IMG/VR virus record: IMGVR_UViG_3300025640_000003 | Span: 1-55,283 of that record | Source: a virus | Taxonomy: Duplodnaviria > Caudoviricetes | DNA length: 55,283 nt | Direction: 5' to 3' (one strand) | Part shown: positions 52,230 to 54,652 of the stretch, in pieces | Layout: each line of letters starts with the position of its first letter | Position numbering within the stretch: the first letter of the stretch is position 1 | Program-made: the position numbers and the translations under genes | Notes under the pieces: model-generated | Seen by the model: only the letters and a program-made list of their open reading frames with translations | The model's database searches: none | What the model was told of the DNA's origin: nothing

Positions 52230-53330
52230 ATGACAGGGATGAGGTACCTAAAAAGAGTTAAGACAAGTAAAGGTTCTTTTGAGTATAAGTTCAACCCACC
52301 TAGGTCAGCTATCAAGGCTGGTGTCGTCAAGGCAAGGACATTCAAAGATGGACGACAAGCAAGGTATGAAGTTCCACGTCTCATAGAAAAAGTAGATGCT
52401 TGGAAAAGGGGAGAGTTAGTTGCCGATAACATTGGACCTAAGAGTAGGTTAGTAGATATCTTCAATCACTATCTGAACACAGAACACTTCAAATCTTTGT
52501 CGTCTAATTCTCAAATTGCTTATGAGATAAATATCAAAAATCTCTTAAAGACAAAAACTAAACAAGGTAAGACTTTCGGTGATACTTGCTTGCATAACCT
52601 TACTGCTGTCTTTTGTTCTCATATCTATAATTCTTGGGTAAAGGACAACGGAGTTCCAACAGCAAACAAATGGGCCACACTGTTCGGTGTTCTTATGAGC
52701 TACGCCATGTCCCTAGACCTGATAACAAATAACCCAATGTCCAAGGTTAAGAAGCTTAAACACAAACCAAGGTCAGAGGTATGGTCTGAGGGACAAGTAG
52801 AGAAGTTCGTGGAGACAGCCTTCACAGAGTTCCGTTGGAGATCGATAGGCATCCTTGCACTTCTCTGCTATGAGTGGGCACAGAGACCTACAGACATAGC
52901 TAACCTCAAGTGGGACGCTGTAGACCTCCAGAGAGGCTCTGTAACGATCACACAGAGCAAGAGAGGGGCCACGGTGTACCTACCCCTAGCAAAGCACCTC
53001 AAGGCCCTCCTAGAGGCTCAGAATGAGGACTTAGGTTTCCAGCCATTAGTTGTACCTGATACACACAGACCTTCGGGTGGCTATGGACCGTTAACCGCAC
53101 AAAGAATGTCAGTACTTGTGAGGCAGGTTAAGGAGACATCTGGCACACCCGAAAACTTAAGGATTGGAGACTTAAGAAAATCTGCAATAACGGAGATGGT
53201 ATCTTCTGGGGTTGATACTTCTGCGATCATGTCTGTAACAGGGCATAAAAATATACAGTCTCTTAATCCCTACTTGAAAAACACAATAGAGGCAGCTACA
53301 TCTGCTTTAGAGAAAAGGAAGAAACTGTAG
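52230..53330 (+). CDS. Tyrosine recombinase/integrase-family protein
   Basis: QRPTDI.NLKW, QSKRG, DLRKSAITEM, TGHKN....PY. Confidence 0.9.
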   Translation: MTGMRYLKRVKTSKGSFEYKFNPPRSAIKAGVVKARTFKDGRQARYEVPRLIEKVDAWKRGELVADNIGPKSRLVDIFNHYLNTEHFKSLSSNSQIAYEINIKNLLKTKTKQGKTFGDTCLHNLTAVFCSHIYNSWVKDNGVPTANKWATLFGVLMSYAMSLDLITNNPMSKVKKLKHKPRSEVWSEGQVEKFVETAFTEFRWRSIGILALLCYEWAQRPTDIANLKWDAVDLQRGSVTITQSKRGATVYLPLAKHLKALLEAQNEDLGFQPLVVPDTHRPSGGYGPLTAQRMSVLVRQVKETSGTPENLRIGDLRKSAITEMVSSGVDTSAIMSVTGHKNIQSLNPYLKNTIEAATSALEKRKKL

Positions 53331-53340
53331 TACATAAATA

Positions 53341-53378
53341 CAACACAAGGTGATCTCTAAGAAGGTTGCCTTGTGTTG
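53341..53378. other. Inverted repeat between the recombinase and the tRNA locus
   Basis: CAACACAAGG...CCTTGTGTTG (10-bp perfect arms). Confidence 0.6.
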
Positions 53379-53408
53379 GTACGACACGTAAGATACAATT
53401 CACTTATT

Positions 53409-53435
53409 GGCTCCATAGCTCAACTGGATAGAGCA
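53409..53435 (+). pseudogene. 5' fragment of the interrupted tRNA-Arg(UCU)
   Basis: GGCTCCA TA GCTC AACTGGATA GAGC A = acceptor 5' strand plus D-arm. Confidence 0.85.
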
Positions 53436-53770
53436 TGTTCAATCGAATGACAATTAGCACAAAGGAGGTCACACTTATCAAGTTCTACTACAATCTTATC
53501 CCAAGACCTCAGTCTGAGCTTGTTCCACATAACATCCTTAGTGGTTGGGTCCATGTGGTGAAACTGTAGTGCTGCGTAATGATCATCATAACCACAACGA
53601 TTGCACTTACCCCCTTTGTAGTTGATGGCGTCTTTCTTCTTTTGTATCCATCTATCTACACAGTATCGGTTGAAGCAACTCTTGCAGGATGATGCTCCTT
53701 TCTTTCTATCAGCTTGTTTATAAAAATCAGATAAAGGTTTTTCTTTGTGACAAGTAGTACAAGTTTTCAT
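53420..53770 (-). CDS. HNH endonuclease inside the interrupted tRNA
   Basis: KGGKCNRCGY....ALQFHH.DP..K...ELDKCDLLCANCH..EH; N-terminal Zn ribbon; ATG 53770. Confidence 0.9.
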   Translation of the reverse strand: MKTCTTCHKEKPLSDFYKQADRKKGASSCKSCFNRYCVDRWIQKKKDAINYKGGKCNRCGYDDHYAALQFHHMDPTTKDVMWNKLRLRSWDKIVVELDKCDLLCANCHSIEHALSS

Positions 53771-53786
53771 GTTTATTCTTTCATTA

Positions 53787-53874
53787 GGTTTCCGTCCCCA
53801 CAACAGTCTTCTAAACTGTTCACGTTAAAAAGGTGGGAAGGAGTGGAGAGGTTCGATTCCTCCGGGAACCTCCA
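53787..53874 (+). ncRNA. Atypical tRNA-like RNA, anticodon UCU, no D-arm
   Basis: GGTTTCCG/CGGGAACC acceptor plus TCCA; AACAGT-CTTCTAA-ACTGTT arm; GAGG-TTCGATT-CCTC T-arm. Confidence 0.75.
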
Positions 53875-53904
53875 TAGTTATACGCAGGTTGGATAGAAAG
53901 TCAA
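53875..53904 (-). promoter_or_regulatory. Promoter TTGACT-N16-TATAACTA directed at the HNH gene
   Basis: Recurrent phage motif inside the insert. Confidence 0.7.
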
Positions 53905-53925
53905 AGTCTAATACAAATATGGACT

Positions 53926-53970
53926 CTTCTAATCAGCAGGTTCGAGGTTCGAGTCCTCGTGGAGTCACCA
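53926..53970 (+). pseudogene. 3' fragment of the interrupted tRNA-Arg(UCU)
   Basis: CT TCT AA TCAGC AGGTT CGAGG TTCGAGT CCTCG TGGAGTC ACCA. Confidence 0.85.
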
Positions 53971-53986
53971 AATCAAGAGGTACTAA

Positions 53987-54652
53987 ATGACACAAATTCA
54001 AGCAACACTGATCGACCACATGGGTAGCGACTTATCGACAGTTAACGCAGCACGGGTTAGCTTTGGTAAGACAAGTCAGTGGGAGTTCAGTGAAGACCCA
54101 GATGATACAGGAACCCTATCAGAGCGTGACACTAAACTAATTAGGTACCTTGCCAAGCATAACCACCTGTCGCCTTTTGGTCATGCCTTTGCTTCGTTCC
54201 ATGTTAAAGCACCTCTATTCGTACACGCTCAACTTGTAAAACACAAATTCTTAAGGGTCAACACAATCAGTCGCCGTTACGTTGACGATAGCGTAGTACT
54301 TTATACACCTGACACATGGCGTGGACGTAGTGAAGACAAGAAACAAGGTTCTTCGGATGACATGGATTGGGAGCATACACCTTATTGCTACGAGACCTCT
54401 CTAAACAACTATAAGTTCTTGTTGGACACTGGTGTGGCTCCTGAGATGGCTAGGATGGTACTACCTCAAGCACTCATGACCGAGTTTTATTGGAGTGGTA
54501 GCCTTGATGCTTTTGCTGCCATGTGTGTACTACGTTGTGCCCCTGACACTCAATATGAGTCACGTGTTGTTGCTGACCAGATCAGTGAAGTGATGGGTAG
54601 GCTTTTTCCTGTTTCGTGGGAAGCTTTAATGAAAGGACAAACAAATGACTGA
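53987..54652 (+). CDS. thyX: Flavin-dependent thymidylate synthase
   Basis: VNAARVSF, HLSPF, QLVKH....NTISRRY, GVAPEMARMVLPQ, LRC...TQYE. Confidence 0.93.
   Translation: MTQIQATLIDHMGSDLSTVNAARVSFGKTSQWEFSEDPDDTGTLSERDTKLIRYLAKHNHLSPFGHAFASFHVKAPLFVHAQLVKHKFLRVNTISRRYVDDSVVLYTPDTWRGRSEDKKQGSSDDMDWEHTPYCYETSLNNYKFLLDTGVAPEMARMVLPQALMTEFYWSGSLDAFAAMCVLRCAPDTQYESRVVADQISEVMGRLFPVSWEALMKGQTND

Follow-up and report, generated by a model that had tools for sequence, protein, structure and literature searches.

An 88-base gene on the + strand of a 55,283-bp phage genome (positions 53787–53874) is probably, at roughly 70% in our estimation, a working tRNA-Arg(UCU) of non-canonical, pseudoknotted build with a new core topology. 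The genome, a complete virus record with terminal repeats, is referred to below as the window. As judged from sequence comparison, the gene is a member of a widespread, unannotated family of phage tRNAs predicted to read the arginine codons AGA and AGG. By the same comparison it is not truly D-armless, its putative D-stem being rebuilt in trans as the helix of a pseudoknot.

In the proposed mechanism, an acceptor stem of 8 bp and a T stem of 4 bp would together form the usual 12-bp arm. The five bases preceding the anticodon stem would pair with five in the short extra-arm loop, giving a D-stem in trans that is stacked on the anticodon stem. The motif AAGGA would supply the G18–G19 elbow contact and the A20 read by bacterial ArgRS, beside C35 and U36. 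We infer that the RNA would be processed from its transcript as other tRNAs are, that the host ArgRS would charge it with arginine and that it would decode AGA, a codon common in the phage, with CCU relatives reading AGG.

Structure of the gene and its relatives

An earlier note on this DNA had described an 8/4 acceptor/T arm, a 6-bp anticodon stem, a UCU anticodon and a long extra region, and every segment was located in the gene. The 5′ strand of the acceptor stem (53787–53794, 8 nt) pairs with 53863–53870, and the 3′ part of the gene (53863–53874) is completed by a T discriminator (53871) and an encoded CCA (53872–53874). A 2-nt connector, TC (53795–53796), which is variable within the family, leads into segment D5, CCCAC (53797–53801), the 5′ strand of the trans D-stem. 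These 7 nt (53795–53801) stand in place of a local D-arm, and no cloverleaf D stem-loop is present. The anticodon arm (53802–53820) comprises a 6-bp stem, 53802–53807 with 53815–53820, and the 7-nt loop CTTCTAA, with the anticodon TCT at 53810–53812.

The extra region between the anticodon and T stems is 27 nt long (53821–53847). It opens with the 5′ strand of the extra (V) stem, CAC (53821–53823), which pairs with 53843–53845. An A-rich loop segment of TAAAA type (53824–53832), of which an RTAAAA-like run is kept in the family, connects the V stem to segment D3, GTGGG (53833–53837). D3, which lies inside the V-stem loop, pairs with D5 (53797–53801) to form the trans D-stem, of which it is the 3′ strand. 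AAGGA (53838–53842), the proposed D-loop substitute, is followed by the 3′ strand of the V stem and a 2-nt connector (53843–53847), and then by the T arm (53848–53862) with its 4-bp stem and TTCGATT loop. The 8 + 4 bp of the acceptor and T stems give a covarying 12-bp coaxial arm. A 7-nt anticodon loop, U33, the purine A37, a TTCRA T-loop and a discriminator followed by CCA are also as in tRNA.

Folding of the gene alone gave a minimum free energy of −29.6 kcal/mol (z = −1.79), which 10 of 200 shuffles equalled and which is thus weakly above chance. This fold is not significant, and the evidence is therefore comparative. Searched with blastn, 37 of 50,697 phage records matched window positions 53793–53866, at ~79–86% identity. 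By organism name these were Acinetobacter T4-like phages (29 records), Vibrio phages (3), Escherichia phage Av-05 (2), Aeromonas phage AhSzw-1 (2) and Salmonella phage Arash (1). Loci L006–L085 were added from three pattern scans of IMG/VR; L065 and L077 matched the pattern without belonging to the family and were dropped before alignment, and L090 and L093 from later scans were likewise not family members. A covariance model of the homologues (R1), one of the checks that the earlier note had proposed, matched exactly 53787–53874 at 95.5 bits. It returned 86 matches at ≥65 bits, the next at 47 bits and then ordinary tRNAs at ≤31 bits.

Excluding the CCA tail, family members are 80–87 nt long. 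They occur in unrelated phage groups: Straboviridae, Demerecviridae, Vequintavirinae, contigs of 40–60 kb and jumbo contigs. Scanning one genome per bacterial species gave 16 loci, eight of them with family members; at the other eight no covariance-model match exceeded 23 bits. Two of the eight members lie in prophage-like regions of bacterial isolates, Spirabiliibacterium pneumoniae and Vibrio injensis, with phage-type genes around both loci (anti-repressor, exonuclease, DNA methyltransferase and PHROG families). The other six are on metagenome-assembled contigs, with tRNA genes nearby in five and arrays of 4–13 such genes in four.

Pairing was counted by script in 51 distinct sequences from two fixed anchors, the 5-nt stretches that immediately precede the anticodon stem and AAGGA. 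Fixed anchors were used because the MAFFT (A1) and model-made (A2, A3) alignments misregistered the extra loop in about a quarter of rows. The acceptor stem was paired in 406 of 408 cells, with double changes in all 8 pairs. Corresponding values were 287/306 with double changes in 5 of 6 pairs for the anticodon stem, and 201/204 with 3 of 4 for the T stem. The pairing of GTGGG with CCCAC that the earlier note had suspected was borne out across the family: the D5/D3 helix was paired in 243 of 255 cells, with double changes in 5 of 5 pairs and 19 distinct paired combinations. Examples are CCAGC/GCTGG, CCCGA/TCGGG, CCAAC/GTTGG, CCTAC/GTAGG, CCGAC/GTCGG and CCCTC/GAGGG. When the 19 combinations were shuffled 10,000 times, the observed pairing was never reached, and sliding the register by 1–3 bases lowered pairing to 29–40%. 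The V stem, formed by the 3 bases after the anticodon stem with the 3 bases after AAGGA, was paired in 149 of 150 cells in 13 stem versions (50 AAGGA-type sequences), a value reached by 0/10,000 shuffles. As compensatory changes are present in all helices, this is not a chance fold. The earlier note had named a lack of homologues preserving the pairings among the conditions that would refute it, and such relatives exist.

Retrieval shaped some of these numbers. Two of the three retrieval scans fixed the loop CTTCTAA, and all scans, including an anticodon-blind one, fixed AAGGA and the T-loop, so that the invariance of those motifs is partly by design. Two IMG/VR scans fixed GTGGG or CCAC; the effect is confined to the most frequent D5/D3 version, whose count it inflates. 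The third set no constraint on D5/D3, and the covariation of this helix is therefore not a retrieval artefact.

Because the extra stem closes the loop that contains D3, the D5/D3 helix and extra stem form a pseudoknot. One strand runs on from the D5/D3 helix into the anticodon stem, and 5 + 6 pairs are thereby stacked; the corresponding stack of a normal tRNA consists of 4 D-stem pairs, the 26 layer and 5 pairs of the anticodon stem. In 32 sequences the anticodon stem begins with A-T and in 11 with A·C, a first pair that resembles 26·44. The label "D-armless" in the earlier note holds for the nested secondary structure and fails beyond it, since D5 and the extra-arm loop covary as a 5-bp helix. 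The connector is TC in 18 of the 51 sequences, TA in 12, CC in 11 and another sequence in 10. The position of U8 varies, with T in 33, C in 14 and A in 3 of the 50 two-base connectors, and the normal core tertiary pairs therefore cannot all be kept. The anticodon loop CTTCTAA is identical in 49 of the 51, the other two carrying CCU and GUA, and the T-loop is TTCGATT in 35, TTCAATT in 13 and another sequence in three.

AAGGA was found in 50/50 Arg-type members. Its last A, which one scan did not demand, was present in 38/38 members there. The motif is placed where the D-loop would follow the 5′ strand of the D-stem, and its GGA may stand for G18-G19-A20. The earlier statement that A20 is absent is accordingly doubtful and unsupported as worded, given AAGGA after the trans D-stem in every Arg-type member. 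A reading of AAGGA as a Shine–Dalgarno site was rejected: the next base changes along with the covarying stem, and no start codon comes after it.

Genomic context and predicted arginine identity

Bacterial ArgRS determinants are A20 (the main one), C35, U/G36 and a discriminator A/G73 or U73, according to passages of PMC9976931. The family carries C35 with U36 and thus fits the C35 + U/G36 pattern. At the discriminator the 51 sequences have A (21), T (18) or G (12) and never C, which also falls within the bacterial arginine range. There is no local D-loop to hold A20; the invariant GGA of AAGGA could occupy that place. Of the 51 sequences, 39 encode the CCA; one clade lacks it, as also occurs among ordinary tRNA genes.

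The anticodon-blind scan, with AAGGA and the T-loop fixed, gave 63 loci, 61 of which held family members, for a total of 62 matches. Of these 59 had UCU and three CCU, and since no other anticodon was seen, C35 and U36 are fixed and position 34 varies. The CCU members are L091:2627–2713 (−), L092:1747–1834 (+) and a copy in AhSzw-1, where CCU and UCU copies stand in tandem six bases apart (L005:1400–1487 and 1494–1578).

The earlier note's remark that the phage uses AGA frequently is roughly right: in a crude set of 42 ORFs from the window (44.7% GC), AGA makes up 24.1% of Arg codons, or 12.1 per 1000 codons, and AGG 18.3%. Far above this average of 42% AGR, 18 of the 21 Arg codons in the integrase gene of the window are AGA or AGG. 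Both of its catalytic arginines, which we take to be those assigned by the box I and box II motifs within the PF00589 match, are AGA codons. This argues that AGA is read as arginine.

Members were found on the same strand as canonical tRNAs and 1–13 nt from them, inside phage tRNA operons. In phage records the site is intergenic, in or beside tRNA clusters; the L004 member follows a tRNA-Thr, and the L061 member lies one base before a tRNA-Arg(CCT). No protein family was a recurrent neighbour, the largest cluster occurring at 6 of 68 loci, all in related phages. As no protein family recurs beside the RNA, it should work with general host machinery.

Canonical tRNAs reading AGR were absent from all five complete genomes considered, in which AGR would be read by family members alone. 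AhSzw-1 has 34 canonical tRNAs, with ACG as its only canonical Arg anticodon. No canonical tRNA-Arg was present among the 14 canonical tRNAs of Av-05, the 8 of Lazarus or the 17 distinct canonical tRNA genes of Vibrio phage D260 (ARAGORN run on the regions flagged by a whole-record RF00005 search for these three genomes). The window itself has no canonical tRNAs of any kind. A partial contig, L018, shows the same gap filling: its 30 canonical tRNAs include no Arg-UCU and no Tyr, and the rewired build is represented there by a UCU member and a GUA member.

The earlier note had offered either a re-engineered decoder or an uncharged decoy for anticodon nucleases or tRNA-sensing defences. The operon context, the restriction to UCU and CCU and the lack of canonical AGR tRNAs favour the decoder, and the note's overall interpretation is partly supported. 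We consider it unlikely that the RNA is an uncharged tRNA mimic with no part in translation, a decoy or sponge occupying a host nuclease or sensor directed at tRNA-Arg(UCU), or at tRNAs generally, and so shielding host tRNA or stopping the defence. Phage tRNAs do counter tRNA-cleaving defences, as passages of PMC10264068, PMC11464382 and PMC13056530 report; a non-canonical build could escape or trap tRNA-binding proteins, and the anticodon loop is nearly invariant. A decoy for an anticodon nuclease, however, needs little beyond the anticodon arm, whereas the 12-bp acceptor/T arm, the T-loop, the discriminator class, the CCA and AAGGA are all conserved here, with covariation. In tRNA-rich phages the RNA also takes the place of canonical AGR tRNAs and does not occur beside them, and the tandem CCU and UCU versions are arranged like isoacceptors.

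Detection, annotation and known tRNA types

No tRNA was called for the gene by ARAGORN in any mode, a check that the earlier note had suggested. Default settings gave none in the whole 55,283-base window, and relaxed (-ps, -ps80) and mitochondrial (-mt, -mtd) settings gave nothing, or spurious calls within or beside the element. Across the family ARAGORN made a call at 1 of 52 loci. Comparison of the window gene with Rfam gave no match at gathering level, the best sub-threshold match being tRNA-Sec (RF01852) at 31.5 bits against a cut-off of 47. The whole-record RF00005 searches of Av-05, Lazarus and D260 did not list the family element. In none of the 37 GenBank phage records matching the gene was the site annotated as tRNA; the records have either no feature there or a "hypothetical protein".

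Among the nearest known systems are the allo-tRNAs and (8/4) phage tRNA-Ser/His of Mukai et al. (2017). Passages of that paper (PMC5389517) describe the same 12-bp 8/4 acceptor branch, and also a longer anticodon stem, an extra arm, location in phage tRNA clusters and escape from standard finders. The window gene has the 8/4 branch, one of the two (8/4 or 9/3) that mark allo-tRNAs. Allo-tRNAs differ in having a local tRNA-Sec-like D-stem-loop, many anticodons and Ser identity (same passages), whereas the phage gene has no local D-arm and its Arg-type relatives carry UCU or CCU only. An "E-loop" form of allo-tRNA, with an extra loop between acceptor and D-arm (described in a passage of PMC7609411), is also different from the phage build. 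The likeness to tRNA-Sec lies in the 8-bp acceptor, the 6-bp anticodon stem and the long extra region. However, tRNA-Sec is 8/5, has the anticodon UCA and a 6-bp D-stem with a tetraloop, whereas the phage gene is 8/4 with UCU, has neither D-arm feature, and aligned 5 nt at the model's 16-nt D-arm; together with its sub-threshold score, this places it outside tRNA-Sec.

These shared traits bear on whether the RNA is charged with another amino acid, for example by a SerRS reading the extra arm in the style of allo-tRNAs or tRNA-Sec, with AGA partly recoded. We regard this as highly improbable. The 8/4 arm, the 6-bp anticodon stem, the long extra region and the best Rfam match all point that way, and 8/4 tRNAs have been reported in phages (in passages of PMC5389517). 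Against it, the anticodon is confined to UCU and CCU, compared with 35 codons for allo-tRNAs (same source, in part), the extra stem is 3–4 bp with its loop taken up by the pseudoknot, and the discriminator is not fixed as G. The AGA codons at both motif-assigned catalytic arginines of the integrase, and the AGR bias of that gene, mean that AGA must yield arginine.

Metazoan mitochondrial tRNA-Ser(AGY/AGN), such as Ascaris tRNA-Ser(UCU), likewise has a short connector at the place of the D-arm (PMC7609411, in passages). The UCU anticodon common to the Ascaris RNA and the phage family is a coincidence. Mitochondrial forms lacking a D-arm are truncated and flexible, with short T-arms, and need adapted factors, as described in parts of PMC7609411. 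The phage RNAs, in contrast, are full-sized (80–87 nt) and encoded in phage genomes, have a normal T-arm and a compensating pseudoknot in which the connector segment pairs with the extra-arm loop, and would have to function with the standard machinery of bacteria. Class II tRNAs (Leu, Ser and bacterial Tyr) also place a helical arm between the anticodon and T stems; that arm ends in a small free loop and their D-arm is local, neither of which holds for the phage family. Canonical phage tRNA-Arg(UCU) genes supply AGA decoding. They have the same anticodon loop, operon context and presumed role as the family, and differ in core topology.

The literature searched held no phage or bacterial tRNA lacking a local D-arm or having a pseudoknot between D-stem and extra loop; the supplementary figures of PMC5389517 on phage 8/4 tRNA clusters lay outside that search and might bear on the point. 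If the preferred reading is true, a natural tRNA family keeps the dimensions of the L-shape by a different strand topology in ordinary bacteria. This would change the view of minimal tRNA architecture, contradict a textbook regularity and offer a natural scaffold for orthogonal tRNA design. Through the annotation gap, gene lists for cultured phages that infect E. coli, Salmonella, Acinetobacter, Vibrio and Aeromonas would lack AGR tRNAs, biasing every phage tRNA census and every analysis of codon compensation. Several carriers are cultured phages with laboratory hosts, which makes the question directly testable.

Variants of the build and neighbours in the window

Three variants have the 8-bp acceptor and a covarying 3-bp extra stem without AAGGA. 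Two of them, L018:3908–3997 (+) and L141:2978–3067 (−), carry a GUA anticodon (Tyr-type) and an A discriminator; the third, L139:1603–1691 (−), has an irregular anticodon loop. The L141 and L139 variants came from the scan of bacterial genomes. Their trans D-stems are 5–6 bp, CTCTAC/GTAGAG in L018, CCTGCC/GGCAGG in L141 and CCCGC/GTGGG in L139. Under the fixed anchor the L018 row is one base off register and scores 2/5; by eye it pairs 6/6. As GUA and irregular members exist, the rewired build is not confined to arginine.

These variants allow a broader and tentative proposal. The RNAs might constitute a phage tRNA class (Arg-UCU, Arg-CCU and at least two Tyr-GUA lineages) with a fold not described in the literature searched, fully active with bacterial ArgRS or TyrRS, EF-Tu and ribosomes. 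Rewiring might then persist because it hides them from host tRNA-directed nucleases that read the normal D-arm or core, or from phage-driven depletion of host tRNAs. We hold this to be possible rather than probable.

Other unusual genes were seen in carriers of the family. In Vibrio phage D260, a GCA (Cys-type) tRNA-like gene lies directly upstream of the family member (L002:1412–1484; record 74504–74576), scoring 36.6 bits with RF00005 and receiving no ARAGORN call. CUA-anticodon tRNAs, which ARAGORN labels tRNA-Pyl and which are amber-suppressor-like, were called in two Acinetobacter T4-like phages, Lazarus and Kimel, and in Aeromonas phage AhSzw-1 (L107:1498–1572 (−), L011:5296–5370 (−) and L087:10892–10966 (+)). 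Member-carrying viral and MAG tRNA arrays also hold four-base anticodons (acca, tatg) and tmRNA genes, at L140:2511–2584 (+), L151:1983–2074 (−), L019:64–455 (+) and L151:1258–1611 (−).

In the window, the gene lies between a Cys/His-rich ORF and thyX. Farther upstream is the tyrosine recombinase (integrase) gene (52230–53330, +; PF00589, E = 4.4e-19). The ORF (53420–53770, −; 116 aa) appears HNH-like by eye alone and gave no Pfam family at E ≤ 0.001. The flavin-dependent thymidylate synthase gene thyX occupies 53987–54652 (+; PF02511, E = 4e-42). The 3′ part of a canonical tRNA-Arg(UCU), from anticodon loop to ACCA, was read at 53926–53970 (+); it is 52 nt downstream of the non-canonical gene and not part of it. 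The fragment scored 13.1 bits with R1 and has a weak mascRNA match in Rfam. Other contigs from the same metagenomes match 53926–53958 only, and then have, upstream, the 3′ end of a D-arm and the 5′ strand of an anticodon stem. Given the nearby integrase gene, 53926–53970 is probably the core of an attP site through which the phage would integrate into a host tRNA-Arg(UCU) gene.

The fragment's proximity, the integrase gene and the failure of tRNA finders could also suggest that the 88-base gene is a decaying tRNA relic, part of an attachment site, or a structured RNA with a different function (processing signal, primer or regulatory tRNA-like element). This is the least probable of the readings considered. 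Across the 51 distinct sequences, whose phages are unrelated and include lytic and temperate ones, pairing is under purifying selection; an integrase was not seen near most loci, and both the complete tRNA-like ends and the operon context are in keeping with a tRNA.

A scan for sigma-70-like promoters or terminators gave no matches in window positions 53300–54100, and among the sequencing runs listed no RNA run contained the region. The Cys/His-rich ORF is divergent from the tRNA gene, and its start is 17 nt from the first tRNA base. At this distance, any promoter of the tRNA would lie inside the Cys/His-rich ORF.
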